Source: Rhynchopus sp. YZ270_cl-10 (lineage: Eukaryota). From it: a stretch of DNA of 64,000 nucleotides. Each line of letters begins with the position of its first letter. The stretch's first letter is position 1. This document shows, in pieces, positions 1,220 to 42,976 of the stretch. The position numbers and the translations under genes are program-made. Location: NCBI GenBank assembly GCA_964035575.1, contig OZ037837.1, forward strand, positions 1,798,001 through 1,862,000, in the 5' to 3' direction. The notes under the pieces are model-generated. The model saw only the letters and a list, made by a program, of their open reading frames with translations, was not told the DNA's origin and ran no database searches.

Positions 1220-2359
1220 AAAAAATATATAAAAAAATCTCATAAAAAAAGTCAAAAAATAAAATTGACTTTTGACTTGGGTGTTGACTTACCCATACAA
1301 TTATTTCCACGCATTTTTTTTGTATTGTAGTAGGTGACTAAGCAACCGAAGCTTAGCATCCGGGTTTTTTTTTTCCGACATTTTTCATTTATTTCACTCA
1401 TAGACTGAGTACTCTTGGGTGGGGAAAGTGGCCCTTCCTCCCAAATTTTATGTGTATTCAAGGTGATACAAGCATGAGAGAGGCTTGAGGTCATCTTAGA
1501 AAAAAAAATTTTTTTTTTTTGATTTTTTTTTTTTTGGCCAAACCACCTTCTCCACTCCCCCTATATCTTTATATCCTCGTTTCCTCTCCAAAACCCCCCC
1601 TTTTCCCCCCAATTTTTTTTTGAAAAGTTGTGTGTTGCATCAGGCGCATCGCTTCTTGTCAAATAATCCATTTTTATTGATATTTTTTTTTTTACTATTT
1701 TACTCCCCTCCACTCCCCCGCGTTTTCTATACTCCCTCATCCCCGAAAAAAAGTATTTTTTTTGATTTTTTTTCCCCAAACCTCCAAAAAAAAAAAAGTT
1801 AAAAATCTTTCCATTCTTTCCTTCGCACCCCCACCCCTTCTCCTTATATCCCTACTAAGCGCAACTAAGAGTAAACTGTATCAGATTCTATAGCGACCAT
1901 AAAAGACATGCCTTTGTTCTCCCGATTTTAAATGACTAAATTCTGGTTCAATTGGCAAAGGTGTGTTATGGCCGTATTGTGTGGTACATTTTTTGTTTCT
2001 TCTTTTTTTTTTTAGAGCTTTAGTTGTCTGCGTGCTTTTTTTGTTTCTTCTTTTTTTTTTTTTTGAAATCATGTAAACGCATTCATTTTTATCTACGACT
2101 CGTTTTGTGGCGTAACGTTTCCTCTGCCTTTGTTCTGAGGTGACTTTCATCTATCAACAATTCTAACATCCAAAAAAAAAAAAAAAAAAGCAAGGGTACA
2201 TTTTTGGCACCCTCTTTGCCTTCTTTTCGTTCAGAAAAGAAAGTATATGAAGTAGGGAAAGGAAACCCGATGTCCTAATGCGTGTCTGCAAATAAAAAAA
2301 GAAATGTGTTTCTATGGTATCAGAGTTTCAGCTCCAATTGTAAAAGTAAATGTTGGAGT

Positions 2360-3234
2360 CAGTGGTCGCGCTAATTATGGGAAAAAATGGGGAAAAAATG
2401 GATTTCGGGTACGGAAAAACGTTCCTTGAAAAGGTTAGCTGGGGAGGCCCGGAAACCCCGTTTTGTGGCATTTCCGGGCCAATCCCGGCTTGTGGTGGGG
2501 TATATACGGAAAAATGGACAAAATTTTAGTGACTTAAATTTTCGCAAAATATGAACCCATACTCGTAAACAAGGGTCATTTTCAGGAAAATTCGGAAAAT
2601 TCCGAGATTTGGAAGCAATTTTTCTCCTGAAAATCAGTGGGTTTTCAGCCCCAAAACATACCGCGATTGGAATTTCCGGAATCCGTCCGCGCTGTGGTGG
2701 GGTCACTTTGCCGAAATGGCCAATTTTTTGGTTTTGGTCAAAATCCATGTGGGTAAAGAGGGCCAATGTAAATCCCACAACCAGATTTTCTCTCCCTGAT
2801 CCTGACGTCTTGCAACATGAAAATGCGCGAAAACACCGGCATTTGCATTTCCGGAATTCGTCCGTTCTGTGGTGGGGTCAATTTGCCGAAATGGACAAGT
2901 TCTTGGTTTTGGTCAAAACCCGTCAGTGTAAGGTAAAGGGGGCAAGTGTTTGCCTGTAGAAACTGGTAGGGAACAGGCAGCGCCGCAGGCGCACGGTACC
3001 CAACTTTTTTTTTTTTTTTCCTTTTCTTTTTTCTCCTCTTTCTTTTGACTTTCCGAGCCAATTGCGTTCCACGGCGGGGTCACATGTATATGCAAGTCCA
3101 CTATGTGGTGGTCTTACTCAACAATATTAGAACTTCTGGTTTCTTAATGAAATCCCCGTACTGCAAAAAAAAAACGTTCCTACCAAAACCCCCAAAAATC
3201 CCGGGATGAGGGATGGACTTTAGCGCGAGCTCTG
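2360..3234. mobile_element. Non-autonomous hAT-like element, 875 bp
   Basis: Imperfect TIR CAG(TGG/AGC)TCGCGCTAA; 8-bp TSD GTTGGAGT at 2352-2359 and 3235-3242. Confidence 0.85.
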
Positions 3235-4007
3235 GTTGGAGTTTGTTTTTTTTTTTTTTTTTTGCGAAAAGCAAGTTCTGAACTAAAAACCAAAAAATGG
3301 TTTTTTAAGGATGAATTTCATCCAGAACTTCACCAAAGTTTTCCTCTCCTTTTTTTTTTTTTTTTTTTTTGGAAAAAAAAAATGGGGGAAAGTGGGTTTT
3401 TGGCTTCTTCCCATCATTTTTTTTCTCAAAAAAAGTAAGTTTTTGGAACGAACAAAATTTGACTAAATAGTAAAACAGTATACTCCATCGGGAGGACAGA
3501 GTGGGGGACGTGTTTTTTTTTTTTGCAAAAATGCGAAAGCATTTTTTTTTTTTTGCCCCGTTCCCCTTCCTCCTCCGCAAGTAGAAATAGGACGAGAAAA
3601 AGTATATTTTACCAAGGATGGTGTTACCGAACACCTGTCGAGGACATGTCAATATGGGCCCTTTCGGTAACACCAAAGGATCGTGGTTCAATTTTTACAG
3701 TATCAAGGTGGGCAGTATTCTTTTTTCTGGGAGACTTTCGGGGATGAAATTTTTTTTTTTCAACTCTGCTCCCGAAATGTTCACCTCCACCTCGTGAGTT
3801 GTAATCGTACACCATAATTGGTGTGGCTGAAAAGGGGTGCTATTTTTTGTGCTACTTTCTGCTGTTTTGGGGTCGTCAGCCACACCAATAATAGTATCAA
3901 TATCAATTTTTTTTCTTCTTCTTATAGCTAGCTATGTAGTTGTGGTGTGATCTGGAGTGCGACGAAGCGATAAACCCCCCCCCTATTCTTGGTTTCTTTC
4001 TTGTATA

Positions 4008-4117
4008 CAGTTAGACAACAAACACCGGGTGGGGTAAAAAAAACTAAGGTGGGTTTTTTTGGAATTTTCAAAACTCTAAGGAAGGGTTTGTTTACCCCCA
4101 CCGATGTTGTCTTACTG
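4008..4117. mobile_element. Tc1/mariner-type MITE (second copy 39617-39715)
   Basis: TIR CAGT(T/A)AGACAACA..CGGTGGGG.TAAA flanked by TA; near-identical copy at 39617-39715 also TA-flanked. Confidence 0.8.
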
Positions 4118-4979
4118 TACTTATGAAGCGTAGCTTAAAGGAGAAATAGTTCCTTCGACACGTTCGCCAATCACCCCCCTCCAGGGTAATTGAGCGAGCA
4201 ACGAAAAGCAACCTTTTTCCCCTTTTTTTTTACCTATCAGAGTTACTATTTTGTATTTTTATTGCTTTCGAGAAGGCATATATCCCTGTATGCATTCCCT
4301 CAAGAAAATGATTGGATCAATGATGCATCGTTTCTTTCTTTTTTTTTTTTTTTTCAGAAATTCACTAACTCCAGTTGTTATATAGCCTAAATTTTTCTTT
4401 TGCTAGTGCCCCCATGCGTCCTCCGGTGGTGAGGCGTTTGCACTTCAAACATTCCTTTCTTGTTCTAATTCTGCCGCTTTCTTTTTATGCCTATTTTTTA
4501 TTGAATACATACATTCAAATACTTTTTTTCGCAGAAATTTTTTTTTCTTTTTCTTTTTTTCGAGCTGTTCGGATCGTCGTTATTCGTAATGCTCTCTGCT
4601 CTCTTCTTCTACAACTCACTGGTTTATTTTTTGCATTCATTTAAAGACTGGCATCGGGTCTGTCGAGGTGCATTAATAGCTTACATTTCCTTCAAGGTGA
4701 CTCAGCACGAGAGGCTTAGGTTCATCTTATAAACTTTTTTTTTCTTTTTTCACACCGTTGTTCATGGCTGTGTAACTTAAGCTAAAAAAAAAACTTAAGT
4801 TTTCTCCGAAATCCTCCGGAAAATTTAAGCGACTTAAGCTACTGAAAAAAAAAACTTAAATTAAAAAACTTAAGTTTTCGAGAAAAAAACTTAAGTTTTT
4901 TTAGAAAAAAAACGTAACTTAAGTTTTTTTTAAAAAAAAACAGCTTAAGTTACCAACTTAAGTCACTTAAGTTAGCTTA

Positions 4980-5718
4980 CTGGGGGGGGTCGAATAAAGC
5001 ACGTACGTGTTTTATTAGGCGTCCCTACACTTCAGATCCTGAGGTTTTAAAAAAAAAAAAGTTCGAAAAGGCGAATAAAGCACGTACGTGCTTTATTCGC
5101 CTTTTTGAACTTTTTGGAAAGTTTTTCCAGTCACAATTTTTTTTCGATTTTTTTTTCGCCCAAGAGGTGATTTTGCTGCATTTCCGAGCCAATCCCGGCT
5201 TGTGGTGGGGGATATACGGAAAAATGAACAAAATTTCAGCGACTTAAATTTTCACAAAATACGAACTACCTTGTCACAACACAGGAAAAGTTCAAAAAGT
5301 CGAATAAAACACGTACGTGCTTTATTCGACGCAAAAAAAAGCAAAAAACCCATTTTTCAAATGCGTGCTTTATTCGACGTACGTGCTTTATTCGCCTTTT
5401 TGAACTTTTTGGAAAGTTTTTCCAGTCACAATTTTTTTTCGATTTTTTTTTCGCCCAAGAGGTGATTTTGCTGCATTTCCGAGCCAATCCCGGCTTGTGG
5501 TGGGGGATATACGGAAAAATGAACAAAATTTCAGCGACTTAAATTTTCACAAAATACGAACTACCTTGTCACAACACAGGAAAAGTTCAAAAAGTCGAAT
5601 AAAACACGTACGTGCTTTATTCGACGCAAAAAAAAGCAAAAAACCCATTTTTCAAATGCGTGCTTTATTCGACGTACGTGCTTTATTCGAATTACCTCGT
5701 TTATTCGGCCCCCCCCAG
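4980..5718. mobile_element. Tc1/mariner-type non-autonomous element with internal 295-bp tandem duplication
   Basis: TIR CTGGGGGGGG..CGAATAA flanked by TA (4978-79, 5719-20). Internal direct repeat with 295-bp period (e.g. 5202 vs 5497). Repeated AATAAA(G/A)CACGTACGTG motif. Confidence 0.8.
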
Positions 5719-6220
5719 TAAGTTACAGTTTTTTTTGTTTTTTTTTTTTTTTTTTTGTTTTTGCTTGGACGATGAACTTCACTGAAGGGGCCGGATACCC
5801 GTAGTTTCCTGATGCAGCATCCCTACTGAAAATTCCAAATGAGGGTGACCACCCAATCAAATCGGACTTATCACTGCACCCGCGTGCGGTCAAGTGCACA
5901 CGTGTGGGGCGATTATTCGGAGTAGACATGACAGTGAAATATCGATGGTAAAATGGCTGGTACATGCCAGTCATTTTCCACTTTCCGAAACGTAAATATT
6001 TTGCAACGAAATATTATGATTGGCGTGGCTGCATAACCGATTACCCGTGTTTCTACCAGTTGTCACCCTCATAGGGGATACACGTGTTGGGGGAAAAATT
6101 TTTCGTCGGTGAAGCTTTTAAACGGCGGCATTTGCATTTCCGGAATCCGTCCGGCCAGTGGTGGGGTCAATTTGCCGAAACGTACAAGTTCTCGTTTTTG
6201 GTCAATTTCCGCACAGTACA

Positions 6221-6500
6221 CAGGTACACAGGTACACAGGTACACAGGTACACAGGTACACAGGTACACAGGTACACAGGTACACAGGTACACAGGTACA
6301 CAGGTACACAGGTACACAGGTACACAGGTACACAGGTACACAGGTACACAGGTACACAGGTACACAGGTACACAGGTACACAGGTACACAGGTACACAGG
6401 TACACAGGTACACAGGTACACAGGTACACAGGTACACAGGTACACAGGTACACAGGTACACAGGTACACAGGTACACAGGTACACAGGTACACAGGTACA
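6221..6500. repeat. Perfect minisatellite (CAGGTACA)x35
   Basis: 280 bp of exact 8-mer units; this explains the six spurious YTGTQVHR/CVPVYL ORFs. Confidence 0.97.
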
Positions 6501-6681
6501 TAATCTGTGGTGGTCAAAAGTGCAAAATTCTTTCGTCAATGCATTTTTTGAGGACCTGTTATACCTAGAGAATATGGTCAGATCACTCTTCGGACCACCT
6601 GAAGCTTCACACCCAAGCCAAGCAAAAGGGAAAAAAAAAAAAAAAAAAAAACGATGACTTAAGGTAACTTAAGCGACTTAA

Positions 6682-8566: not shown

Positions 8567-8630
8567 TTTTTGTTGTATCGACAATCACGTTATACCAGTA
8601 GGTATAACGTGATTGTCGATACAACAAAAA
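8567..8630. repeat. Perfect 30-bp-stem palindrome (loop AGTA)
   Basis: TTTTTGTTGTATCGACAATCACGTTATACC-AGTA-GGTATAACGTGATTGTCGATACAACAAAAA. Confidence 0.9.
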
Positions 8631-9761
8631 CAAAAAATGTAAAAGGGAGTTCGATTTACCTTACTCTTGAAAAAGTTCAGACTTTCCCTAAGTTTTTGCC
8701 CTAAAATAAGTTCAGACTTTTTCCTATTTTTTTTAAGGGCACGTCTCAGACTCTGAACTTATTTTAGGGAAACTCTGAATTTTTTTCTCAAAATAGTGTA
8801 AATCTGACTGTTCCTCAAAAATAAACACACACTGCGATTTGTATAACGTGGTATGCATCCTCTGAGGTGTGTACACGACGAACAAATACAAAAACAAAAA
8901 TCCCCTTTTTTTCTTTCTCCATTTTTTCTCTTTCTCTTTCCCCAAACCTAAGAAGTGTAGCTATTCTCGCCTTTCAAAAAGGGTGTAAGATTATTGCAAA
9001 ACCCGCCTTCTTCTTTGGTGGGGAATTGTCGTCACAAAAAAAAAATATTCTGGGACTAAGTCACAGGACGAGTCCAAAAATTTAAAAAAAAAAAACACAG
9101 GATATAAGAAACTGCCACACTACACCAAAACAAAATACGTCAGGTGTCCACACTAATACAAACCAAATTGTTACCTATCTCTCTCACAATGGAGTTAGAG
9201 GCGGCAAACACAAAGGTGCTCTGCGCCCTTTTTTTTTATCGGGTCCAAACAAAACAAAACAAAACAAAAAAACGAAAACTAAATAGTGCACCTCATCCTC
9301 GGGAGTCTATTACCTACTACTCAGTTTTAAAATAAAACGAAGCAACAATTCTCTGGGACAGGTCTGAAAGCAAAAAATTGAAAAACGAAAAAAAATCTGC
9401 CCTGTTTCCCAAAAGAGAGGACCATCCTCATTACTAAACACTACCGTTTTTTTTTTCTCTTTCGCCCCCCATTTTTCTCTTTTTCGACTGTTTTTCTTTC
9501 TGTTTCATAACTACATGTTTAACCACCGTTGTTTTTGTAAGAAGATTTTGATATCTTCTGCAGTCGATTGACCGCAACCCACATAAAAAAAGATAAATTG
9601 AACGCCAACCTGAAAGTACCATTTTAAAAACCTCCTTTTTAAAATGTACCTGTATGTGCAGAAGATTGCCTCCCATCTCTTAAAAGAACATTTTTTTTTA
9701 GCTAAAATAACTCTGGGGTTTTGATTCTGAGCAGAACGCGCTCTTTTTTTTTTTTTTTTTT

Positions 9762-9916
9762 ACGCACACTACTTTGTGAGCGGAAAGTGTCACGTCGTTC
9801 ACTCACCCAACCGTGCTCCGCAACACCACCACCCAACAGGTGATTTTTAGTGTGTGTGGAAGCGTCAACGCATCAAACAACTACAAGAAGGGGGGTGAGG
9901 GAACGACAAGTGACAC
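9762..9916 (-). mobile_element. 155-bp Helentron/Helitron2-like non-autonomous element, copy 1
   Basis: Identical to 28662-28816 and 47718-47872. Asymmetric IRs AAAGTGTCAC/GTGACACTTT (one terminal, one about 25 bp internal), terminal hairpin CGCACAC..GTGAGCG, inserted in T runs with no TSD. Confidence 0.75.
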
Positions 9917-12900
9917 TTTTATTTTCTTTCTTTTTACTGATGTAAGGGAGGGGGTTTTTTTTTGCCAATCACCTCCCCCCCCTTTCAGGAGAACTTCTCT
10001 ATTTTTTCTCCTTCCCCGCCGCTTTACTCGTATTTTCTTTCAGTGTCTGCGCCTGACTGAATAGTGAGGCGTTTGCACTTTCGACTTCTCTTTTCTTTTT
10101 AGACCGATGTGCAAAAAAAATAAAAAAAATATATAAATAACCAAAACATGTGTGCAATTACCGATTTAAACTTAGTGGCCTCAAGAGTGAGGCTCGTGAT
10201 CCTAAAGTCGAAACAAAAAAAAACAAAAAAAAAAAAAAAATCGTTTTCACCTCTCCCTTTTTTTTTCCCATTCAACACTTTTCTGTGCTGGTTTAGGGAG
10301 GGGTATTTTTAATAAAATGAAAAAAAACAAAAATTATTTCAACATTTTTTGCGAAATGAAATGAAAAAAAAAGGCTTTCACCCAAAGTGGGTCATTTTTT
10401 TTTATTGTAGACTTACAAGCATTCCCTATATAGTGGGACAAAAGCATCTGTTCAATGTTTGTGCAAGGAGGCATAATCATCTGTTACTAGTAAAAGGTTT
10501 ATTTTTAAATATTATCTGTTGTAATGCGTGGTTTATCACGCAAAATAGTTCAAGGTGACGTTTATTTTTTTATTTTATTTTTTGAATCTAGGTTGTACTC
10601 TGCTTCGGTAACCTCGGATTAGGTTCTTTTCTTTCACTATCAACTTCACTTTCTTTCTCCGAATCTCTTCTAAAAAAAAGCAAAAAAAAAAAAAAAAATG
10701 ATAATCTAAAATTCCCATTGAAAAATCCCCCCTGATCTTCCCCCCTCCTCCTCCCCCCTCCCCCCTCCTGTCTGTGTGTAAGCGTACATCACCCTTATCA
10801 GGATCTATGTTCATTTTGTTTGAACATTTTCATTATTTTATTATTTTTTTTTGACCCGTGTTACATCAACTCAAATCCATATTCATTTCCTCCCCCTCCT
10901 CCCCCCCGTTCCCTCCCCACACACACACTTTTTTTTTTTTTTTTTTTTTGCTCAGATTTTCTTTCCATTTTGCCCTCCCTCTGTTGATTTCTTAAAGAGT
11001 GTGAGGACTCCCCCACCCCCTCCCTTCCCGAGTCGGGGCCAGGCTCATCTTATTTTTAAAAAAAAGTTTTTATTTTGTCCACCAAAAAAAAAAAAAAACC
11101 ATCCACTCCTTTCATCCTTGACAACACATAGGAATTTGATTTTTTAGACCCCACCCCAAGCACAAAACAAACATAACAAAAACTTCATAAAAACCCATTC
11201 AAACACCCCAAGTTTGGTATTAAGGCTCTGCAAAGGTTTGCATGAGTTATTCTAGCTTTTTCTCTGTTTAAAAAAATGTTTTAGAGACCAATTTTCTCTT
11301 TTAATCGAATAGCAAACCCCAACCCAACCTTTAAAAACAAATATTGGAAAAATTCAGTTCTACTAAAATTTTTTTTTCAAAGAACAAAAACTAATACAAA
11401 TTTTCATATTGCCCCCAACCCCCCAATAAAACTCCCTCAACAAAACCCCCCAAAAATATTATTTCTTCTAAAAAAAATATCTCTCATTTCTCTCTGTTGG
11501 AGAAAGACAACAACTCCATTTTTTCTCTTTTCAAAAAAAAAAAAAAGAACATAAAATACATGTCTTGATCAGTTTCTCTCTTATTTTGGAGAGTACTTTC
11601 TATAGGGTCCAAAAACTCATGTTCGTTTTACTGACTCTCTTTTTCTTCTTGTATTTCAGATATTTTTTTTTTTGTGGAAAAAAAAAAAAAAACAAAAACG
11701 GTACTACTTCTTCATCGTTTATGCCCGAATGGTATTATTGAAATCAGCACTTCTCTCTCTCGCTGTAAAAAGGATATCTCATCTCGGATATCTCCAATAA
11801 TACAAAACCAGTTTTTTTAAATAAATTACAAAGACTTCAAACTCATAAGCCGCTTTTTTTGTTATCTATCTCTTCCTCTTCCTAGCCTAAACAAAAGCAA
11901 AATTTCCAGAATTTTTTTTTTGGCAATTTGGCGGCTTTTTTAGACTCTCATTTAGGAGTACTTTTCTTTTACATTTTTCTTTTTATTATCATGATGTAAA
12001 CCACGAAATGTAGGACTGCATGGTTGGGGTGTCCACCCCCCAACCATGCCAAGAATGGAGACTCTTGGCTTCGTTGATGGCAAACTAATTTCTTTTTTAT
12101 GCATAATGTCAACATCGAAATAGAAAAAGGACTGCATGGTTTTGGGGAGGGGTCAACCCCGGTGTACTCAAGGTACACTGTGTCATTGTATTTCAAGTAA
12201 ATTTTCTTTTTTTTTTTTTTTTTTTCTCTTTTTTAAAAAAATGCTGTGCGAGGCCAACACATTCATCTAAATCAGGTGAGAAAAAGGTGACTAAGCAAAA
12301 ACGAGAAGAGGCTTAGGTTCATCTACTATAATTTTCTAATTTTCTTTTTTTCTTCCTCTTCATCTGGGGATGCGTTCCCTTACCCGTTAGTGAGATATTT
12401 TTTTTTTTCTTCAAAATTGTTGACGCGTTTGCGTCAACAATTTTTTTCAACTCTTTCTTCTTTTTGAGATATAGAGATGTGTGCCCGAGAGTGCACATTC
12501 ATCTTCAAAAATAAATAGTTTCTTCTTTTTTTTAAAAATTCCTTTCTATCGCAAGAATGCGCCCATTCTTTTCTAATTTATTTTTAAAATGATGTGCGCC
12601 AATGAGAAGCACATTCATTTCTTCGAGTTTCCCTCTTTTTTCAATTTTTTTTTATTTAAATTTTTCTTTGATTTCACCTGAAAACGGTCAGCTACCGTTA
12701 CTTTTTTTTTTTCTTTTTGAGGAATTTGGAAAGCCTTTCAAAAAAAAAGGTTTATATTTCCACTTTTTTGCTGTTTATTGTGCGATGTTTAACCTATATT
12801 GCGCGGAATACTTTATGTATACACGGCAGCCCAACTCAACACCGGATTTTTTTAGGCTATTTAGCCTTCCGGTGCAGCATACAGGACTTTCCTGAAAAGC

Positions 12901-13781: not shown

Positions 13782-15081
13782 TTTTTTAAAAGAATTTTCA
13801 AATTTTTTTTGCATTCCATAGAAAGGGTAACACCAAAAAACAAAAAATCATATAGTGGAGCACACTCTAGGGTGTCTACACTAATACAACCAAGTTTTCA
13901 AAAAAAAAATAAAGTGCAGCCTAGTAGGCCCTACCCCCAAGATTCTTTTTTTTCTTTCTTCACAAAAAGCCTTCAGTGGGGGTTAAGGACAGCACTTTAT
14001 CTCCACCTTAGTATGTATAAAAGTAGTGCACACTCTCGGGTGGCTACACTATTACAACCAAGTTATTAAAAAAGAAAAAAATCAAGAGTTGGGCCAACAT
14101 TAAGTGACCCTAGGTTTTCCCAGTGCTTAGGTGATTGTCGACAACAACAGTCGTGAAGATGCAATGAGAAGATAGACACTAAAAAAAAAATTATTAGTGG
14201 AGCCCCTCCTCGGGGTGTCTACACTGATACAAAAAAAAAAAAAAACCAAAGTTTTTCGAAAAGAAATATTTTGGGGTAAGGCTTCGGCATTACGTATAGA
14301 CGATGGGATAGATGGTGTACAGTGATTGTCGATACAAAAAAAAACTAGCATAGATACGACACATTGAATTTCTTCGGAACAGAATGACCTAAGATCAGAG
14401 AGCTTTTTTTTTGTGAACTTTTTGGAAAGAGTGGAGAAATGGAACGCTTCCGCTTTTACCTGAAAAGAGAATTTGAGGAAAAAGTGCACTTCTCTCTATA
14501 CTTGGCGGTTCACGTACAAGCCTAGGCTGTCCTGTTGCAAAGATTTGATGATAGTTGTATTATCCTATCACCAAAACTCTTTCTAGATAGGTGTCGATGT
14601 ATCTTTGGTTTGTTGTTAATAAGAAGGCGCTCATCAGGCCCTTGGAATTAGTCGACACAATTTTTTTTTTAAATATTTTTTAGCTAAACTCTCAACGGAT
14701 ACGGGTAAGATGACTAACACAACAATGCAGACACGGCGCGCTGTTTCTTTTTGTGGTGTGGTCGAGTCATCCCAAAAAAGGATGACAAAATAAAATGCGT
14801 TTGTCTCGTTTTCCCTCTTTTTTTGTGCCATGTAAAGGCGGCTTTTGACCCGGCTTTGCTTTGCCAAAAAAAAAAACCCCCCCTTTTTTTCTCCCCTTTT
14901 TTCATATTGATGAAACTTATATTTTCTTTTTCTCCACCTCACAACGTATCAAGGCGTGCTTCTGCACCCTATAGACTTCTTGTACATTATTGTACACAGA
15001 AACCGTCTTTTTTTTTTATCATGAAGAATATTGACGACGAGGCAGATTCTTCACGATTATCATGTTTTTTTTTGACAAGAA

Positions 15082-15216: not shown

Positions 15217-15578
15217 AATATTTTTTTTTCTTGAAATAACAAACACAGCGAAAAGATCACGCTCATTTTTTTTTTTTTTTTTTTGTTTTTTTTTTTTTTT
15301 TTTTTTAAACTTTTTACCAAGCCCCTCCCCATCCTAGGTTGCACCTGAGTGAACCACTGTCCCCAACTATTTGATACACGACATATTTTTTTGCAAAAGA
15401 GGAACATACTTTTGTGCATTTCTCTATAATATTTTTTTTTAAGGGTGACTAATCATTCATCCTTTTAACTTTCTTTATTATCGAGACAACGATAGTGGTA
15501 AGATGTGCACGAGAAGCACGCTCATCTTTTTTTTTTTTTTTTGACATGATTTTTTTGGCCTGTTCTGACCAAAATAAC

Positions 15579-16241: not shown

Positions 16242-18038
16242 AAAATAACATTTGGACAAATACCCAGTCTTTTCTTTCTTGGGGGGTTTTCCTTATCACG
16301 GGGTTCCTCAAGTTTAAAAGAAGAAAAGGGTGTGGGTAGTGCCATTTGTGCAAGGAAGCTTTTCATTTTTTGACAACTCGTGGGGGGGGAAGCGGATGAC
16401 TCCCTCCTCCATAACCCACTCTGCAAAAATCGGGAGGAAACAAAAGTGCATTTTTTTTTGGGAATAAAATAACCAAATTTCAGGAAAAACAGATTTTTTT
16501 TTTTTTGAAAAAATCCCAGTTTTAATGTCTTAGACTCTAGACACCCCTTCCTCCCCCTGATTCATTTTTTAAAGACCACCAAAACAAAAAATTTTAAAAA
16601 GAGCACAAAAACAACAACTTTCATTAACTTTCAAAATCTTCCCTGATTCATAACATTGATCTCAATAGTATCTCCCCGACCCAAAACCCCACCTTTTTTT
16701 TTTTTCATGCATTTTTCCTTTTTTGTTTGCGATAACTCTATCTTACTCTACTCTTAAGTCCATCTTTTAAAAAAAAATGTTCTTAAGTTCATCGTTCACA
16801 ACTCTTTTTGCCCTGTCCATTACATTCCTCCCCAAATAAAACAGAAAAGAAAAAAAAATGTGCTGTCAGACAGTCTGTAAGGATACTTGCCTTTGAAAAG
16901 GCGGCCAGTAGTACATAATCTTAATTTTTTTAGAAAATGGGGGAAATGAGTAGGAGGGGGGGATATTGTCGTGCATACTAACCCCCTTTTTTTTTTGGGT
17001 GATATTTTAGGACAGAGCCCATCTTGGTGGCGGTGATTTGTCTCTAGAATTATAAAAGAAGTAAAAACTTAGTGTTTAGTGGAGAGCACACTCTAGGCTA
17101 CACTAATACAAAATTTTCAAAAAAAACAAAAAAAAAAAAAAAAAATCTTTCTCTCAACCACACAACTCCCTCATCTCATACCAGCTTCCTTTTTTTTTAG
17201 TGTAAAGCCCACAGCAGGAATTATTTTTCTCTAGCAAAAGTTTCCGCTGTGAGGGTGGATTTACACCAAAATATTTAAAAAAAAAACGTTTTTGGGGGAG
17301 AGACTGAGTAAAATACGCGGGTAGGATTTTTGGTCGACCTCAAAAACACAAAAAAAAACAAAAAAAAATATTGAGTGCAAGAACCCAGATACCGCCCCTT
17401 GGCGGGGCGATTGTTAAATACAAAAACCAAAACAACCAAAACAACATCCTTTCTTCCATCAAGTGAAATACAATTGCCCTCCCTTTAGTCTCATTCGTAT
17501 TTTGCTTCACGTACTTCATTTAGAACCACACCAACCCCCCACCCACTTTTTTGTGCCTACAGCACGTGTTCGCTCCAGCAGGTGCTGGGGAAAAAAAAGA
17601 AAAGAAAAGAAAAACATAAAAAAAGGGAGGTATAAAAAAAAAAGTAAATGCAATACGGCCACGGGTAGCGCGTATTCTGTATTTTTTTTCTCCTTTATTT
17701 CTTCTTTAGTTGCTATTTTTTGGATAGGGTCTTCCCCCTTTTTTTGACATTTTTTTTTTTTTTTGATTTTTGTTTCCCCCTGTTCTCGTGTGGGTACGAT
17801 GACCCCACGGAAGAATCGGTGCTTCTGCCTGATTTTCAGAGGCGTTTTTCTTTTTTGCTCTGTCAAAAACTATACTAATTGTACACTACAGAATAAATCC
17901 CCCTTTTTTTGTATATTTTTTTTTTGTCAGTTTTTGATAGTGAACACTATTTGAGGGTTCAATTTCAATCTGATTTTTCTCTCTTTTTTCACACAGTGTT
18001 CGAGTGGAATTGTGGTAAATCGTCAAAAAAAAAAAAAA

Positions 18039-18202
18039 AAGTGTCATTTTTCATTTTGCCGTTCCCTCAGCCTTTCTTGTAGTTGTTTAATGTGCTGGGG
18101 ATTCCACACACACTGTCTCTCACCTGCAGGGTGATGGTGATGACGAGTGTGGTTGGGTGAGTGGATGACATGACACTTTTCGCTCACAAAGTAGTGAGCG
18201 TT
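18039..18202 (+). mobile_element. Diverged, oppositely oriented copy of the 155-bp Helentron-like element
   Basis: Reverse-complement similarity to 9762-9916, including AAAGTGTCA, TTCTTGTAGTTGTTT, GGTTGGGTGAGTG and CGCTCACAAAGTAGTGAGCG. Confidence 0.7.
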
Positions 18203-18821: not shown

Positions 18822-18855
<34 letters not shown>

Positions 18856-19271: not shown

Positions 19272-19360
19272 TGGAAGCGTATAACTAACAAACTCTCCCC
19301 CTATTTCGTTTCCCGTTTTTCCTGTGTGGGCGAAGATAGTTATTGACACCGTAGTATTTT
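19272..19360 (+). repeat. About 85-bp dispersed repeat F (also 37018-37098 and 53380-53460 inside the NAGLU intron)
   Basis: TGGAAGCGTA.AACTAA(C)A.ACTCTCCC..TTTCGTTTCCCGTTTTTCCTGTG..GAAGATA..TATTGACACC in three co-oriented copies. Confidence 0.85.
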
Positions 19361-20381: not shown

Positions 20382-21339
20382 ATCCAGTATACTATTATTC
20401 TGTTTTTAATACTGGCACGAGTCTACGTCGAGAGGCATATTTTTATGTTTTGCTTTTCTATCTAGTGTATGACGATACTAGCACGTCGACAACGGAGGAC
20501 AAAGTAAAACAAATAGGACCAAAAGAACGTCAATAAATGCCTTGTATTAAAAGGATTCAAATAAATCGGAAAGCGTGGTTCCAAAGAAATAGTACTAACT
20601 TTAAGTACTAAAAAATTGTGGAAATCCGAATTCAAAAATGTGCAATGACCTGTATGTCTGTATTTTCGTGTATTTTCGGGTAGGTTCGCCCATTTCCCAC
20701 AAAAGCTGCATGCTGCGGTATTGAAACTCTTTTATACAATACGACCACTGTCAAAGCACATTATTTAATACTATAAAAGGGAGGGGGAGAAAAAAAAAAC
20801 AAGTAATTGCTATCGGAAAAAAAACGGCGTGTGCTGTGGAACTCCACCCTGTAGAAGTAACCTACAACACACCCAGCACTCTGCTCTTCTGCAGGTATGA
20901 TAACGCTCTTCGTACGCTGCCAGACCCACTGGGACGCCTGCATCTGAAACGTTCAAGAAGGGGGGCTGTCCTCTTCATCCAGCACCATCTGATCGATAGC
21001 GTCGTTGGACGTAGTCTCGGCAGGCTCGGCGTGTTCCAGATCGTTTTTGTCCACAGGGTCCCACGCAGTGTCGTCGTCGTTGGAGCAGTGCGGAAGAAGC
21101 ACAGAATGCACAGACGACAACACGTCGATCACACCAGGCACATCAGCACCTCCAGCAAATCGCTAGGATGCTACGGTGGTTTCGAAAACCACGCGGGGTT
21201 TTCCACAGCACACCCCGTTTTTTCCTTAGCAATTAGTTGTTCTTGTTGTTATTGTAATTTTCAACCACCTTCCTTCAACCCTTGTAGGATCAGTTCTAAT
21301 TTTTTTTCGCGAAAACTTGAAATGACACATTTCAAGAGA

Positions 21340-21876: not shown

Positions 21877-23493
21877 AAACGATAACAAAAAACTGCACAA
21901 AAGAAGTGAAAAAAAAATCCCCCTTCACCCAGGCTACTGCAAACCAAGTTTTTCAAACTGACAGTAACAGAGGGGGGAAAGAAAAACTATGGAGCTCATC
22001 CTCGGATGTCTGCACTTCTACAACCAAGTTTTTCAAAAAAAAATAATCAAAAAACGTATTTTTTTTTGAAGGATAATGCTTTACGCACTTTTGTTAAAAG
22101 ATTGGGATCAAATAATGTATCCCCCCATATTTTTTTATCCTTTTTTCGTTTTCTATATTTTAGAGGTGACCAATGTGCAAATAATGCCTTCGTCCCTAAA
22201 CCATTTTTTTCTTTGCTCTTTAACGTTTCTTCTCTCTCTCTTTTTTGCTCTACCCCCCAACCCCCCCCACCCACTGCCTCCTGATCAACCGAAGATGGTT
22301 GAATTTTCTTTTACCCCTGAAATCTCTATTCACACTCACTCTGTGGATAAACACTGAACGCCAGTAGTGGCAGTCAGCCAAAACAACCAACCCAAAAAAA
22401 AAAAAAAACCCTTAGATTGAGCTCATAGGGAGCTCCGTTTTGTCATCTTCTCCAAGTTGTGTAACCATTTGTGGGATTTGTTGGGTCTTTTTTTTTTTGT
22501 GAAAAATTTTTTTTTGTGAATTTTTCCTGAGAAAAAAAGACCCCAAATCACCCCAATTTTTTTGTGCTTCTTTTTAGCGTGTACGTTCATGCTATTTGTC
22601 GTGTGTCTGTTAGAGGTGACTATGCATGTCGGTCATATCCCTCCTTATTTTCTTTCTTTTTTATTTCTTCGCAGATGGATGTGCACCGAGAAGCGCACCG
22701 CTCTTTATTGTATTTTTGGAAAGACTGCAAAGATTGTTTTTTTTTTTGTACTATTATCATTATCTTTTTTTTTTTACGGAATTAGAAGAATTTAGAGAGA
22801 AAAAAGAAAAATACTTCATTGGCTCCAAACCAATGAGTTCCTCCCCCCCTCCAGAAAGGGAAAGGGTTCTACACATTATTTTCAAAAAAAAAAAGAACTG
22901 ATTTCTCTCCTGGGGGCGTGGGGGACTGTCGAAAAAGCAAAAAAAAAAAAAATTATAAAATATTCCTGCAAAAAAAAAAATCTCGCCCCCTCAAAACCCC
23001 CCAAAAGAGAGAATACTTTTACTCACCTCCTGCATAATGATATCGTAATAATCTTTCTCCCAGAACTAACGTTACCAACCCCCATAAGAAAATAAAAAAA
23101 AATATTTTCAAAACCCCCAGAAGAAAAGCAATCAAGAAGAAGTACAAAGCAGCATTTTTTTTTTAAAAAACCCATTCTACCCATCCTCTAAACCCACTAA
23201 TTCCACTCCCCAAAAACAACAACAAAAAAAAAAAATTGGAAGAAAAGAAACGAAAAGAAAATAAAATAAAAAAAACATCCACTCCAGTTCCACGATGATA
23301 AGTAATGTAAATCAGATCCATTGCCCTTTCGTGGTTATTCCACAACCCAACACCCCTTATTTTTTTATTTATTTTTATCTCAGAAATACCCGACAAGCGT
23401 GGGACCAAATGTCATAATTATTAAATATTATATTTATTTCAAGCTGAACAGTGAGAGGCTGAAGGTCATCTAAAAAGAACTTTTCTTTGTTTA

Positions 23494-23601: not shown

Positions 23602-25543
23602 TATTTTTTTTTGTCAGTGACTGCGTCTCAGAGACTTCTGCACTTATCAACTTCACTTTTGGGAAAGATGTAATGGACGTCAGCTGAGATACATTTTTCC
23701 AAACACTTTTATTTTGTTTCTTACGGATGACGTACTAAGTAACAGTACATAGTGCACCCTTTGCTGCTGATTGAGGCACTCTCACAGTATGTAGATGAAT
23801 TTCTTATTAATATTGTGCTTCCCGGGAGAGGAATTTGTGAAATGCATACCCCCGGGTAGTACCGAATTATGACTGGCTAAACACGCAGTACAACGAGTAT
23901 TTTCTCTCTGCACGGTAAGGTAAATAACCTGACTTATGGTTTTATTTGTGGTTTCACCGTTGTAAGCTAACGGTGCAAGCCATAAGTAAAAATCAAATAT
24001 CACGTCATTTTGCTTCGTGTGAAATATCCCAATACCCCCCGCCCTGAATACTTTCCTCAAACCCCGAAAAAAAAATAGTAAAAATTTTTAAAAAAGAAAA
24101 AAATATTGAACAACGGTCTTCCCTCGGGGCAACCAAACAAATAGAAATGTAAAAAAAAAACAAAACATAACAAAAATGTGCGACAGTCTGTCGGAGGAAT
24201 GTGGTCGATTTTTTTTTTTTCAGAAGGTGAACACCGTTTTGCCCGTGGTAGAGAGTTCTTTTCCTGCGTGTATAGGCGACGAAACTGTTGGTTATTTATA
24301 AGTGGGATACAAAAGAATGGAAGAGGCTCGACCTGTAACTTTATATTATTTGCCTTATTTCTTTGGACAAATGCACGGTGACACCTCATGTTACGGTTCA
24401 GGGGTTTCTCCTGTGTTTTTTTCTTCTAATTATGGTGCTTTCTCTTTTTTTGTCCTGGTTATTTTTGTAGGGCCTTCCACATTCTAATGTTTCACATTTG
24501 TGCAGATTCTGTTTATTGAGGGGGAAAAAAAAGATTGGTTTATGGAAATTACCCCCTTTTTTTTAAAAAAAAAGTTTTGGGACTGTCCCCGACTCCTCAC
24601 GCTGAAGCATATCATTGCGTTCATTCAGAAAAAAAATAATTACTGCCCCCATGTGCTCCCCATATTTCTGTTTTTTTTTTTGATTCCCTCCCTCTCCCTG
24701 ACCCCGGGGTGGTAAATAAATCTTGCGGGCCACAGAAATCTCTCCTTTCCTTGACTCACCTCAGCGGTCACGCAAAATAAAATAAATACAAAAAAAATTC
24801 CCCGTTTTTTTAAACCAGATTTCCCGTTTTTTTTTTTTTCATCTTAGTTCATCCCCATTTCCACTCCCCCAGCGTGTATTTATTTTTGCATGATTTGCGA
24901 AAATTTAAAAGGTAAATTTTATTTGATTTTTTGTTGAAGAAAAAAAAACTTGAAAGATGTGTCTTTTCCGATGTCATCTTTCAATTTTTTTTTTTAGAGG
25001 GTCAGCTGACAGCTGACAGCTGAAAAAAAAAAAACTGTATTTCCCCCAATGGTGAGGTGGCACGGGGGAGCGGGGCGTACGTTTTTTTTTGTGACGTCTT
25101 CCCCCCCCCCCCCTCGATAAAACGGTTTTGTGAATGAAAAATAAAAAGTAGACTGCATTTTTGCAGCCAAGCATCTTCGCGCATAAAATTACAAGCGAAA
25201 TTCTCGAGAAAGTGAGAGGCGTCAACGCAACATACGGGACGTCAATAGTTTGGACGAAAGTTGATTAATGGACAAATTCTACTATTGTATTTTTTTCCAT
25301 GTACACAGTGATTTTTTTTTTGTTTTGACAAAAGGTGACTAAGAACGAGAGGCTTAGGACCATCTCATAAAAAATTTCTTTCATTTTAACGGTCCTTGTG
25401 TGCTTTTCTCTACGAATGGAAAGATTATGAAATTGACTTTTTTTTTGTATGTGCAGATGTCGCGCTTTCATGCACATGATACACATTCATCTATCTTCTT
25501 CTCCTTCGCTTCTCTGCAAAATTTTACAGATGAGTTTTATGTA

Positions 25544-37704: not shown

Positions 37705-39872
37705 AAAAAAGGGGGCAATAAAATCAAAACATCGCAAATATGAATTTTTCGGAGCGATCTGAAGAAATTGTATTGGGTCGGACATATTTTTTTTTAGTGG
37801 AGTTTAAGCCAGTACCCACACTCGTTTTCATGATCCTCATCTCCAACCCAACTGCTCCCGCTTCGCGACTGTGAAGCAGCGAACAGACACTGATTTCTTC
37901 AGCTCCGGGAAACCCACAAACCATCAAAACCCAACAAAAAGAAAGAAAAAAACAGTTAGTGGAGCACACTCTAGCCTAGACCTAGGGTGGCCACACTAAT
38001 ACAACCAAGTTTTCAAAAAAAACATACTTGCAAAAAATACCCACCTTGCATCACTGCTCCCTCTCTCTCTCTCTTTCTCTCTCTCTCTCCCCCTTCCCCT
38101 TTTTGTTGTTCATCGATGTTATATCGATAATGGCCCCTCTGTGTTCAGGGGGCCTCACTTCCCCTCCCTCTCTCTCCCCCCCACGAGAATATTTTGTGCT
38201 TTCATCCAGATGACTGGCATCGTACACAGTCGACCAGTCGGAAACGGGGCATTGGGGTGTACCATTTGATAAGCAATGGTATTTCAAGTATAGGTGAGGT
38301 CACGACACCTTCCCCCCTTTTTTTTTCCCAGTTGTATGTGCACGTTTTAAGGAACCTTTTTTAGGTCCCCACTTATGAAGTCAGGCCAGTGTCCTTAGAG
38401 GGACTCCTAAACGGTACTGCCACACCCTGAGGGGGAGGTGTGCTGTCTGTATACTATGTGGCAACAACGGGGAGGTGACCTCCGTATGTCGGCAATCCGT
38501 GAGTAGTAGACGTGGGAAATGGCACCAACCGGGACACAGTCCTGGGTTTACTCTAGATTGAATATGAAAAAAAAAAAAAAAAAAAACAAGCAGCCACACT
38601 GCGACAACAACGCTAAGGTGACGAGAGGCGAACATCAAAGCATTTTTTTTTAAACCCACAACAACATACAAATCACAACAAAATATCACCAACTTCATAT
38701 TCACCCCATTCACACCCCCTTTGCTGTGCCTGTACCTTAAGGGGGCACCAACACAAGGGTATTGTATTAACCAGTGCCTGCGTCCACCGGTGTACGGTGA
38801 GGCGTTTGCACTTTCTCTTTCGCTCCCCCCCCTCCACACACAGTAAGCGTTTAGTGCAACTATACTAAACGCGATGCATGAGCACATTCACCCTTAGAAC
38901 GGTGAGGTGTTTGCACTTTCCCTTTTTTTTTCGAGAAGCATTTTTTTCTTCTTGCAGCTCATCACCCCGTACTAAACTCTTCTCCGAAGCTATTTGTTTT
39001 TTCACAGAAAGCCACATATCCAGGAATTTTTTTTTTTTGAAGAAAGAAGGAGTTGGTCCACCAGCAACTCCTCTTTGGTTTGTTTTTTTTTTGTGGCAAA
39101 AAAGGAAACAAATACTAATAAAAAGTGGAGATTTGCACAACTGTGGCAACACAACCGAGGCAACTACACTACAACAATTTATCAACAAAAAAAAAAAAAG
39201 CAAAATTCAAGACTGTCAAAAAAAGGCAGCTACACTAATACAACAAACAGGCATATTACTCAGTCACCATATTTGGGAAGAAAGCGATACGGCGAAAGCA
39301 CATCACTTTAAAGTGGCTCCAAAAAAACGGGCATATTGTAGCTGATCTATGCAATGTTATATGGGTGAATCATTTATGCTAAGGTGACTAAGCACGAGAG
39401 GCTTAGGATCATCTTATAAACTTTTCTTTATTTTTAGTGTCACGTGAGACGATTCTTTGTAGCCTCTCTCTTTTATTTTCTCTCCGTCCCCACCCCCCCC
39501 TAAAGCAAGAAGCCTGATCTAAAGGTGGCTGCCATTACTTTAAAGTGACAGTCTGTCTGTGTGACTTGCTGGTGCACGCCCTTGTGTCCCCCCCTTAGCG
39601 TGGCAAATACAATGTACAGTAATACAACAAACGGTGGGGTAAAAAACTAAGGTGTATTTTTGGTTTTTCAAAACTCTGAGGAGAGGTTTTTACCCCCACC
39701 GATGTTGTCTTACTGTACATTTAGGGTACTGTCCATGGCACGTCAACTGAAACCTCAACTCGCCATGCGCATACCAGAAGGGACACGTGGCAGCAATCAA
39801 CTTTTTCCACAGCGACTTTGTATTTTTTTTGGCTACATTCTTGTTCGCCTTTCTCTCTCTTTTTTATTTCTC

Positions 39873-42751
39873 CATGGGTAGTATCTGGATCCAGTTCCAG
39901 GTGATTCCAGGTTTCTCAGATTTTTCGTGAAATTCCAGGTTTTTTCCAGGTATTCCAGGTGATTCCAGGTCAATTCCAGGTAATTCCAGGTGGGTTTAAG
40001 CAGAAATCTGCACGCAACACAAACACACATTCCGATCTGGAAGTGTGGACGATGACAAAACACTCGGTTTTTTACACTGCTGCTTCCACTGCTGAGGGTG
40101 CTGTCGCTGCCACTGACACTGGAACTGCTGCCGCTGGAACTGCTGCTGCTGTTGTCTACCCTCTTCCTTTTCTGTTCCCTCTGTTTCACCGCAATCTTTT
40201 TCACTTGCGTGATCATTGCGTTTGGTTTCCTCCCCATGGTTTTTGTTGTTCTCTCTACACAGTGTACTGAATAGGAAGAGAACTCGGGGATAGAGGGGAG
40301 TGAGCGCTTCAGCGACAATGGCAAAGACTAAAAAACGAAAGGTTTTTGGGGTAAGGACATTCTGGTACCCCCAAGTTTGACTTTTGGACAATTCAGACCC
40401 ACAAGGTTTCGATAAAGACAATTCAGACCCACAAGGTTTACGATAAAGACAGTTCAAACCCACAAGGTTTACGATAAAGACACTTCAGAACCACAAGGTT
40501 TGCATTTTGGACAGTTCAACCCCACAAGGTTTGCACTTTGGACAGTTCAGACCTTGTGGGTCTGAACTGTCCAAAATGCAAACCTTGTGGGTCTGAAGTG
40601 TCCAAAATTCAAACCTTGTGGTCTGAAGTGTCCAAAATACAAACCTTGTGGTTCTGAACTGTCCAAAAGTCAAACCTTGTTGTTCTGAACTGTCCAAAAG
40701 TCAAACCTTGTACGTGTTTTCTTCTTCTAAGGTGCTTGCTCTCCATACCTAGACCCTCGAATTTTTTTTCTTGACCCCATACATATGGGTGCATTTCGAC
40801 GATTTGAGGCCATTCAAAGCAAAAGTTGGCACTTTTGAGCATCTGCGGGGGTCTAAAGCACGGTTTTGCGTACACCACGCTGGATGATAGGGGTCACATG
40901 ATAGGTCACATCATGTGGCCATATATCAAGTTACACCGCAAAAATCTACCAGACCCTGTCTTCGTACAACGCCGCAGACAGGCCAAACATGCGTTGGACT
41001 CAGAGGAATGCCTGCTGTGCAGGTATCAAACATGAGAACCAACTCCCAGCAACAAGGGGCGCCTTTTGGCAGGCGTTGTTGAGGGTGTTTGGGGTGCAAA
41101 GTTTTCCACAATTTTGATGCGCGGGTACAGAAGCGTTGTCTTGTTCTTTCATCTCTAGGAAGTTAAATGTTCAATCGCGTTTAACTACCACTAGTCTAGG
41201 GCTTGTTCAGTGAACCCACGAGGGGTCGAAGGGGGTTGGTTATCCCATATCTATCAAAGGTTGTGTCGACCAGGCGAATCCACTATGTTACGCTGTACGT
41301 TGTTAAATCCGAAGAAATAACAACAGTGCATATGGCAGCGTCCGCAAACCACCCCCCCTTAAAGGTTATTATCAACTGCAGGAAGTTTGTTAAAAAGAGT
41401 GCCTCACGCTACACAAACCACCACCCGCGATTGACTTAGATGATAACTAGAGAATTCAGAACAAAACAACACCCTGCCCCATACACACTAAATTGTCATG
41501 CTCAAGAGCATGCCTGGGCCAAAATTACTGTGACACAAAAGGCAACAATACTACCCACAAGGAGTGTGAAATGTGCACTGGTTTTCTGGGGGAACGCAAT
41601 ATTTTATTGTGCCTCGTCCTCCGCGAGCAGAGGACAGACTTTCCGGAAAGTTTCCAAAGGTCGAATTTCTTGCACTAGCCATGCTCCCTGGGTTAAATGG
41701 CAATAGCAGTGACTGACTTCTGAGAGAAACAGGGCACTTGAAACCCAATTTTCATTATTTTGGTGTAATCCTGTGAGGGATGGGTGGGGAGGTGTGGGTG
41801 TGGGTGGGTGAAAAAAGGTGCACGAAGACAGGGTCTGGTAGATTTTTGCGGTGTAACTTGATATATGGCCACATGATGTGACCTATCATGTGACCCCTAT
41901 CATCCAGCGTGGTGTACGCAAAACCGTGCTTTAGACCCCCGCAGATGCTCAAAAGTGCCAACTTTTGCTTTGAATGGCCTCAAATCGTCGAAATGCACCC
42001 ATATGTATGGGGTCAAGAAAAAAAATTCGAGGGTCTAGGTATGGAGAGCAAGCACCTTAGAAGAAGAAAACACGTACAAGGTTTGACTTTTGGACAGTTC
42101 AGAACAACAAGGTTTGACTTTTGGACAGTTCAGAACCACAAGGTTTGTATTTTGGACACTTCAGACCACAAGGTTTGAATTTTGGACACTTCAGACCCAC
42201 AAGGTTTGCATTTTGGACAGTTCAGACCCACAAGGTCTGAACTGTCCAAAGTGCAAACCTTGTGGGGTTGAACTGTCCAAAATGCAAACCTTGTGGTTCT
42301 GAAGTGTCTTTATCGTAAACCTTGTGGGTTTGAACTGTCTTTATCGTAAACCTTGTGGGTCTGAATTGTCTTTATCGAAACCTTGTGGGTCTGAATTGTC
42401 CAAAAGTCAAACTTGGGGGTACCAGAATGTCCTTACCCCAAGGTTTTTTAGAATTTCCATCACATGGTGTTCCGGAGGGGGCCAAGATTGACATGTCCTT
42501 GACAGTGGGGGTCCACTTTATAATTTGTGCGGGTTATTTTGGCCGGGAAATGTGCATCTTCCAAAAACACCGGCATTTGCATTTTTGGAATCTGTCTGTC
42601 CAGTAGTGGGGTCACTTTGCCAAAATGGACAAATTCTTGGTACATACGTGAAGACACCAGTAAAAAAGCCTAATTCCAGAAAAAATCCAGATCTGGAATA
42701 CCTGGAATTTTTCTGGAATTACCTGGAATCTGGATCCAGATACTACCCATG
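39873..42751. mobile_element. CATGG-ended non-autonomous DNA transposon with 6-bp TSD, host of the foldback element
   Basis: TIR CATGGGTAGTATCTGGATCCAG; TTTCTC at 39867-72 and 42752-57; subterminal TTCCAGG repeats. Confidence 0.85.
40348..42439. mobile_element. Foldback/Mutator-type (MULE) element, 2092 bp, with 618-bp TIRs
   Basis: Arms 40348-40965 and 41822-42439 appear to be exact inverted copies, starting GGGGTAAGGACATT; 9-bp TSD AAGGTTTTT (40339-47, 42440-48); arms contain about 29-30-bp tandem units (TTTGGACAGTTCAGACCCACAAGGTTTG) in both orientations. Confidence 0.92.
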
Positions 42752-42976
42752 TTTCTCTTTTTTCTTCCCACTTTTTCTCTCTCCGTACAAAACAAACCAT
42801 ACTTTTTTTTGAATTGATGTTGTTTGAAGGTGCCCACTTACACGGTATTATATTAACTATTGTGATCAAAGATGACTATAAGCAACGGGTGGCTAAGGTT
42901 CTCATAACCCTTTCTTTGTTTTTTGCCTTTTTGTTTGCACTTTCAACTTCTCTTTTTTTTTTTGTACCCCCCCGAC

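Follow-up and report, generated by a model that had tools for sequence, protein, structure and literature searches.

We analysed a window of 64,000 nucleotides of nuclear, eukaryotic DNA from the diplonemid Rhynchopus sp. YZ270_cl-10, a marine protist (contig OZ037837.1, positions 1,798,001 to 1,862,000), which carries two related families of short hairpin repeats, A and E. All seven long open reading frames (ORFs) taken as genes in the whole window lie on the + strand, and the products include a fatty-acid hydroxylase, a leucine-rich repeat (LRR) protein, NAGLU, an F-box-like protein, and a nucleotide cyclase. Among named sequences, the NAGLU is closest to those of Diplonema japonicum and Flectonema neradi (53–54% identity). 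Its sole intron is a canonical GT-AG intron that opens with G/GTATG, the Diplonemidae consensus (PMC12621601). Diplonemid genes are arranged in unidirectional polycistronic clusters with repeat-rich spacers (PMC10161547). All listed hairpin sites are located in non-coding DNA, which covers 1220–35950 and 36813–49400 (47.3 kb) and contains only weak coding-like segments.

The best copy of family A is located at 39381–39429 on the + strand (71 bits), with its ends set by placed contigs. It comprises a 7-bp closing helix with one G-U pair, a 2-nt bulge on the 3' side, a 6-bp inner stem, a GAGA-type loop, and a pyrimidine tail of 14 nt. A conserved 3' tail of ~15 nt is part of the family A unit and was absent from an earlier sequence-only reading of the window, which had described A and E as hairpins with one base and one ACGAGA loop. 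A relative of the motif is indeed present at all 17 sites given in that reading, but its descriptors were too uniform. The full A pattern is exact at 39382 only (one of eight A sites) and the full E pattern at 15501 only (one of seven E sites), while the loop ACGAGA is found at 6 of the 17 sites and TCATCT at 10.

Between positions 1220 and 49000, the + strand carries 10 instances of the strict base AG[AG]TG...TCATCT and the - strand one. In 100 runs of locally matched third-order Markov sequences, the means are 0.98 (+) and 0.6 (-), with a maximum of 4. The sole - strand match is a palindromic copy read in reverse, namely a shortened A/E-like copy with an intact base at 32818–32842 (+). A covariance model trained on the nine A copies finds these copies by construction, all on the + strand with E < 1e-4, and nothing further below E = 0.058 when both strands are searched.

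The other A copies, all on the + strand, were delimited by the covariance model together with folding or, for the copy at 1460–1511, a pair count. The copy at 4694–4742 has one broken inner pair, that at 25332–25380 has three broken pairs, and that at 12284–12339 has a loop 7 nt longer. The copy at 1331–1373 retains an intact inner stem with an altered loop and a broken base, and at 34277–34317 the 5' arm of the inner stem is deleted. Two copies are degenerate: 23441–23486, in which one further compensatory pair is visible by eye (MAFFT set it in the loop), and 42869–42917, which has an E-like 5' end and broken pairs. The copy at 1460–1511 (copy 1461) carries two compensatory pairs, and the stem swap reported there by the sequence-only reading is genuine. 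The copies at 1331 and 1460 lie 112 and 241 nt past the stop codon of a + strand ORF ending at 1219.

The family E copies are also on the + strand, at 12475–12504, 12589–12620 (degenerate), 15501–15527 (the exact match mentioned above), 22673–22706 (broken 3' base), 25455–25492 (with insertions), 33401–33430 (broken base), and 38871–38893 (a remnant from which most of the loop is gone). The copy at 32651–32682 (+), formerly regarded as a third stem type, belongs to family E and carries one compensatory pair (GTGC/GCAC to GTGT/ACAC). Weak A/E-like remnants below model significance are present at 2138, 12256, 15443, 22614, 27143, 28921, 38615, and 59113. A and E have the closing helix, the two innermost G-C pairs, and the loop in common, and are separated by the middle stem (CTAA/TTAG in A, TGT/ACA in E). 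A and E are sister subfamilies of one repeat.

Contigs of four public runs (X1, X4, X6, and X7) were placed on one 256-bp stretch around the best A copy (39225–39480). X1 and X4 come from two studies, and one of them may be the source of the window itself. These genome-wide abundance data concern family A only, and the copy-level statistics given below concern one window. A total of 8609 contigs from X1 and 5516 from X4 were placed. Summed depth rises from 167 in the flank to 4.4 million in the unit in X1 and from 64 to 1.5 million in X4, and the rise is confined to ~39378–39440 (ratios of ~26,600 and ~23,200). The copy number of family A is thus put very roughly at 10^4, and the nine confident A copies in 47 kb would imply the same order for a genome of at least 100 Mb. 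The very high copy number indicates that family A is a copied repeat. A-like contigs from X6 and X7 (365 and 28 placed) have a depth of ~2 and may be traces of the same organism.

Loose contig ends concentrate at 39380–39382, where the 5' end is sharp, and at 39425–39435, where the 3' end is ragged. On either side, the loose flanks are rich in T and mutually unrelated, with an agreement of 0.37–0.47 in X1 and X4, indicating that family A is a stand-alone unit of 50–55 bp consisting of the hairpin and a tail of ~15 nt. Self-comparison of the window likewise shows that homology among copies ends with the unit. The possibility that the copies are parts of one larger element was rejected in view of the unrelated flanks. 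Head-to-tail dimers with joints from 39429 to 39380, corresponding to a 50-base unit, were found in 4 contigs of X1 and 8 of X4, and other family A dimers are separated by short T-rich spacers. Exact A cores were found in no prokaryote genome and in no viral contig searched. A gapped A pattern matched one metagenome locus and seven viral loci, the latter representing 3 distinct sequences; this is approximately the chance number by a rough estimate, and most of these matches lack the full inner stem; they were not considered further. Searches of the hairpins against Rfam with gathering and E-value thresholds gave only a weak overlap with a microRNA model (E = 4.2).

Two further families share the AG...CT closure of A and E and also form hairpin-plus-tail units of ~50 bp. 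Family B (12 copies analysed), exemplified by 13853–13899 (+), has an AGTG/CACT-closed hairpin with a tail and A-rich flanks, with further copies at 8848, 9284, 14021, 14195, 17077, 21987, 29436, 29607, 34019, 37957, and 62026. Family C (10 copies), exemplified by 32868–32922 (+), has an AGTGC/GCACT-closed hairpin with a 2-nt 3' bulge and a pyrimidine tail, with further copies or parts at 4407, 10042, 23615, 38773, 38892, 42929, 46572, 46992, and 48783. Every one of the 14 B matches (E ≤ 0.13) and 8 C matches (E ≤ 0.08) is on the + strand, and the B core was not found in prokaryote genomes. All confident copies of A, B, C, and E in the window therefore face the direction of the genes. By contrast, the short A-rich-tailed motif of family D occurs in both orientations and once as an inverted pair (8567–8630, 14130, 14319, 26840, 28000, 29579, and 37116–37135).

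The T content of the flanks is 44–51% for A and E and 38–43% for C, compared with a background of 33%, while B flanks contain 52–54% A against a background of 28%. With the elements masked, pyrimidine tracts of at least 20 nt number 33 on the + strand and 8 on the - strand, and A/C tracts of at least 16 nt number 49 and 24. If copies are independent and follow this strand bias of targets, the probability of finding 27 of 27 A, E, and C copies on the + strand is 0.8^27, or ~0.002, and that of finding 12 of 12 B copies is 0.67^12, or ~0.008. Of 35 copies, 25 fold better on the + strand as RNA, and 26 do so as DNA. As RNA, this is the case for 8 of 9 A, 10 of 12 B, and 5 of 6 C copies.

The sequence-only reading had proposed that exchangeable stems and a conserved loop reflect selection on a structure recognised by a protein. 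In a MAFFT alignment of the nine A copies, 13 pairs gave 98 cells, of which 82 are unchanged, 14 broken, and 2 kept by two-sided change, with none kept by one-sided change. Neutral simulation gave 13.7 broken, 4.8 one-sided, and 0.42 two-sided cells (P = 0.06 for the two-sided count). Both two-sided cells belong to copy 1461. Of the 16 altered pairs, 14 are broken (P = 0.94 for the kept fraction), so that stem changes disrupt pairing no less than expected by chance. The 4 pairs of family E include one compensatory cell, and their covariation term is unfavourable; B has no such cell. Among the A copies, the loop is not conserved above the stem in either alignment: substitutions affect 8/53 loop and 20/200 stem positions (15% and 10%, P = 0.32) in pairwise alignments, and 18/63 and 22/215 (29% and 10%, P = 0.0008) with MAFFT. 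These are the two outcomes that the sequence-only reading had itself named as refuting its proposal, here in a small sample of nine A copies. A pair-shuffle covariation score (1/500) was discounted: both cells belong to the same copy, and sliding controls gave 0.049 and 0.051 compared with 0.056. Paired changes can also arise without any selection when a hairpin corrects itself through template switching. TpG stands in place of the loop CpG at 5 of 17 sites, and diplonemids possess 5-methylcytosine enzymes; the signal is weak because CpG is not depleted here (0.81 vs 0.86).

The exchanged stem of A and E counts as a single event, between two subfamilies, rather than as repeated covariation. 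What stands of the earlier proposal is a frame common to A and E around a differing middle stem; selection on the scattered copies is not supported. The common frame and the better fold of the + strand (A 8/9) suggest that a recogniser acts on source copies.

From what was observed directly, namely the repeat, its ends, flanks, abundance, and tandem dimers, its orientation in the window, and the decay of its copies, we infer that A/E is probably a non-autonomous selfish repeat of ~50 bp that is likely copied through RNA; constraint on the fold would then be limited to a few source copies. We give this statement, taken as a whole, about an even chance. Polycistronic read-through would transcribe the sense copies, so that a promoter of their own would not be needed. 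A retrotransposon reverse transcriptase acting in trans would then recognise the bulged closing helix, and the U-rich tail would anneal to the nicked A-rich strand of a T-rich target. Priming by the U-rich tail would explain the T-rich flanks, the ragged 3' end, and the insertion into the tail of an existing copy, as well as the co-orientation with a pyrimidine-rich sense strand. The common frame with its swapped stem would then reflect the requirements of the copying enzyme rather than a role of the individual copies in the host. D. papillatum, the model diplonemid, has ~2500 retrotransposon gene models in its genome (PMC10161547).

Several points weigh against this RNA-copied repeat. We infer the RNA route, no partner enzyme or empty site having been found. 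Target-site duplications at A/E copies in the window are not above background; direct repeats flanking copies average 5.33 for A and 4.75 for E, compared with 5.22 and 5.16 between unrelated copies, although these copies are old and their flanks of low complexity. Target-primed insertion usually leaves such a duplication. The target bias covers much, not all, of the orientation, and since the orientation is stricter than this bias, selection or a transcription-coupled step must contribute. Family E folds better on the + strand in only 2 of 8 copies as RNA. In the MAFFT alignment, the stems (10% substituted) are better conserved than the loop (29%) and the tail (28%; P < 0.001). This excess could reflect purifying selection on stems; it may also come from loop misalignment together with the finding of copies by their stems. 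Finally, the sample consists of 9 A and 8 E copies only, and the depth ratio is not a copy number and was taken as an order of 10^4 only.

Alternatively, the hairpins could belong to a selfish repeat that an HUH-type nuclease, either REP/PATE-like or Helentron-derived, mobilises in single-stranded DNA form, an explanation that we regard as possible but unlikely. The bulged hairpin would be read on one strand and inserted without duplication into T-rich single-stranded DNA during transcription or replication. The size, the one-strand fold with a conserved bulge, and the tandem dimers parallel those of REPs (PMC8266576), while the lack of target duplication, the T-rich flanks, and again the dimers parallel HINEs (PMC4067079). 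As noted above, DNA parameters likewise favour the + strand fold, in 26 of 35 copies. A Helentron-like element with three identical copies is present in the same window, but it occurs in both orientations (3 + and 1 -), unlike A, B, C, and E. The GTAG/GGAG foot and a CTRR near the 3' end are each found in only 2 of 17 copies, and there are neither subterminal inverted repeats apart from the hairpin nor inverted REP-iREP pairs.

Similarly improbable in our judgement is the strongest form of the sequence-only reading, in which the copies are host-selected RNA elements in 3' untranslated regions (3' UTRs) and polycistronic precursors, comparable to the domesticated SIDER retroposons of Leishmania, with the loop and closing helix bound by a protein. 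Every confident copy is sense-oriented beyond the target bias, stems are conserved at least as well as loop and tail, and three or four compensatory pairs are found across A and E. Diplonemid 3' UTRs are long, with a median of ~800 bp (PMC10161547), and the copies at 1331 and 1460 lie 112 and 241 nt past a stop codon. However, pairs are broken at the chance rate, the loop is not conserved above the stem, and several copies have lost an arm or the loop. Most copies are many kb from genes, in a 34.7-kb stretch without a convincing coding segment, and no A/E copy was found downstream of the NAGLU, LRR, or cyclase genes.

A question of origin, compatible with an RNA-copied repeat, is raised by the sarcin-ricin loop of 28S ribosomal RNA (rRNA), whose conserved 12-mer AGUACGAGAGGA contains a GAGA tetraloop (PMC12737465). 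Family A keeps 10 of the 12 bases, including the C-G-closed GAGA, and so falls short of the full 12-mer. A/E may have arisen from a 28S sarcin-ricin fragment whose 3' strand was rewritten as a perfect complement of the 5' strand and which was then amplified, which we consider a rather doubtful scenario. With the two loops in register, 13 of 15 bases of A39382 agree with a eukaryotic 28S loop (L010, confirmed by Rfam), and E32651 shares an uninterrupted run of 8 bases with it. The 3' strand of A is the Watson-Crick complement of its 5' strand. The U and A altered in A are the bases that form the sarcin-ricin bulged-G motif, and this motif is lost; the C-G pair closing the tetraloop is also gone in most E copies. 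A 28S fragment at 35729–35840 in the window ends ~20 model positions before the sarcin-ricin helix. SINEs derived from 28S rRNA exist (PMC4994717). In contrast, a 12/14 match anywhere in a large-subunit rRNA is expected 0.24 times, local alignment of A to L010 does not rank the loop best, and none of the copies is matched to an rRNA model by Rfam down to E = 5. The comparison was made post hoc, and the reference 28S is not from a diplonemid. The fragment itself corresponds to Rfam model positions ~2885–3003 and is followed, ~90 nt downstream, by what is likely the splice acceptor of the fatty-acid hydroxylase gene. Scattered 28S pieces number ~3600 in D. papillatum (PMC10161547).

A bolder extension, to which we give only a slim chance, is that the families represent an undescribed class of promoter-less 50-base micro-retroelements riding the polycistronic transcript. 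Their unrelated stems would carry one AG...CT handle for the enzyme, and the tens of thousands of copies would face transcription. The top family would derive from the sarcin-ricin loop, with GAGA still present in 3' UTRs and spacer RNA, where it could serve genome-wide as a regulator or a decoy.

That a single intergenic block was locally duplicated in tandem, or that the copies are due to chance, has a negligible probability: duplication would account for the common orientation and fits a weak clustering of A/E copies (median distance 876 compared with 2504; P = 0.038 in one of six tests, without correction), but the copy flanks do not align, thousands of A-bearing contigs with unrelated flanks contradict it, and chance is excluded by the Markov null of the strict base. 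Known RNA signals were also considered and rejected. The inferred trans-splice acceptors before two genes have C-rich tracts without a hairpin. A tiny GT-AG intron inside A is absent from E, B, and C, and the copies are not in exons. SECIS, H/ACA, and C/D RNAs were dismissed, as the copies have neither their boxes nor an Rfam match.

Other elements were identified in the window. A 159-bp element is present in three identical (100%) copies on the + strand (9762–9920, 28662–28820, and 47718–47876) and in one copy on the - strand (18025–18201) with 77–80% identity. Its hairpin adjoins one of two subterminal inverted repeats of 17–19 nt, with T runs at both ends, and the element is Helentron/HINE-like and apparently recently mobile. 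The region 40346–42441 contains perfect terminal inverted repeats of 623 bp composed of 31-bp subrepeats, an 850-bp core, and a 9-bp flanking direct repeat, and is a young foldback/MULE-like insertion. The NAGLU intron (53229–53494, 266 nt) carries an 80-bp dispersed repeat that is also found at 19272 and 37018. The four nearest NAGLU relatives are 721–722 amino acids in length, each with all three domains. Apparent frame changes in the B-box/ubiquitin-like/LRR gene (49466–51384) and the nucleotide cyclase gene (59511–61704) indicate pseudogenes or assembly errors. A GC-rich, weakly coding-like segment without a Pfam match lies within the long spacer (20824–21213). Microsatellites at 6152–6500 and 63450–63870 are perfect 8-mer and 9-mer arrays, both of the GTA/TAC-CA type.

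Taken together, A, B, C, and E form a real micro-repeat superfamily that is undescribed in the literature surveyed and most likely selfish. Gene regulation in diplonemids is mostly post-transcriptional, and their long 3' UTRs are without known elements. At least four strictly sense-oriented families of 50-base hairpins are candidates for 3' UTR elements or, alternatively, for unusually small mobile DNA outside standard definitions. Should the copies prove to be merely decaying, they would add a little to the knowledge of repeats and caution that an exchange of stems between repeat subfamilies must not be taken as a sign of host selection.

Comparison with known systems starts with the same protist group. 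The D. papillatum assembly consists of 52% repeats with nearly 10,000 motifs, the commonest occurring ~6000 times, and many motifs are of no obvious origin (PMC10161547). In the portions of that paper covered, the main text contains no hairpin micro-repeat or orientation bias, and seven of its supplements contain no mention of a hairpin or palindrome. No description of diplonemid hairpin micro-repeats was found in the literature surveyed, mostly at title level. Euglenozoan non-canonical introns interrupt exons, have paired ends, and are spliced out (PMC12621601), while no hairpin copy lies within a coding segment.

SINEs are defined by an internal RNA polymerase III (Pol III) promoter, a head of the tRNA, 5S, or 7SL type, target-site duplication, and a simple 3' tail. 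Like SINEs and SINE28, family A is short, non-coding, high-copy, and presumably non-autonomous, with a simple-sequence tail and a possible rRNA-derived core (PMC4994717). SINE28 is reported to depend on Pol III (PMC4994717). With consensus boxes as the pattern, a B box within 60 nt and an A box on the + strand were found in none of the 17 copies. No tRNA is present in the window, no copy has an Rfam match, and the A tail is T-rich and not A-rich on the folding strand of a unit of only ~50 bp. MITEs are defined by terminal inverted repeats at both ends and a target-site duplication; unlike these, the A unit extends ~15 nt beyond the 3' arm and is without a duplication above background.

Canonical Helitrons have a 5' TC and a 3' CTRR ~11 bp after a palindrome of 16–20 nt, and insert between A and T (PMC4067079, PMC8266576). 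In A, TC precedes the AAG start in 3 of 9 copies, CTRR was found in 2 of 17 copies, and C is the commonest letter preceding the unit in placed contigs. HINE/DINE-1 elements, which are Helentron-associated, resemble A/E in their T-rich targets, variable terminal T runs, lack of duplication, stem-loop, and tandem copies (PMC4067079). T-rich targets with variable terminal Ts and without duplication are seen in A, E, and C, while B flanks are A-rich. HINEs, however, have subterminal inverted repeats of 12–15 bp and a separate 3' palindrome (PMC4067079), whereas the 7-bp inverted ends of A/E close the hairpin itself in a unit of ~50 bp.

REP/BIME sequences with TnpA-REP, like A, are imperfect bulged palindromes of 20–50 nt with one active strand (PMC8266576). 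They also occur in hundreds to thousands of intergenic copies, with several stem types per genome and tandem copies, as do A/E (PMC8266576). In contrast to REPs, A/E are located in a eukaryotic nucleus, have a 3' tail, and do not form inverted pairs. A GTAG-type tetranucleotide precedes the palindrome in 2 of 17 copies, and no HUH/TnpA-REP gene was identified among the 16 window ORFs scanned.

SIDERs derive from ingi-type retroposons with a 79-bp signature, act post-transcriptionally on host mRNA, and are about ten times longer than A. This signature is longer than the whole A unit, and A/E are, unlike SIDERs, hairpins of 50 bp without a known parent. In Leishmania, SIDERs are dispersed, degenerate, non-coding intergenic repeats of a euglenozoan host, numbering ~1850–2000 per genome (PMC2689281). 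Like A/E, they are located in unidirectional gene clusters with a sense excess (PMC2689281); here, all confident copies in one window are on the + strand. Collectively, A/E fails a defining test of SINEs, MITEs, Helitrons, HINEs, and REPs, and it combines a REP/HINE-like form with a SIDER-like placement.

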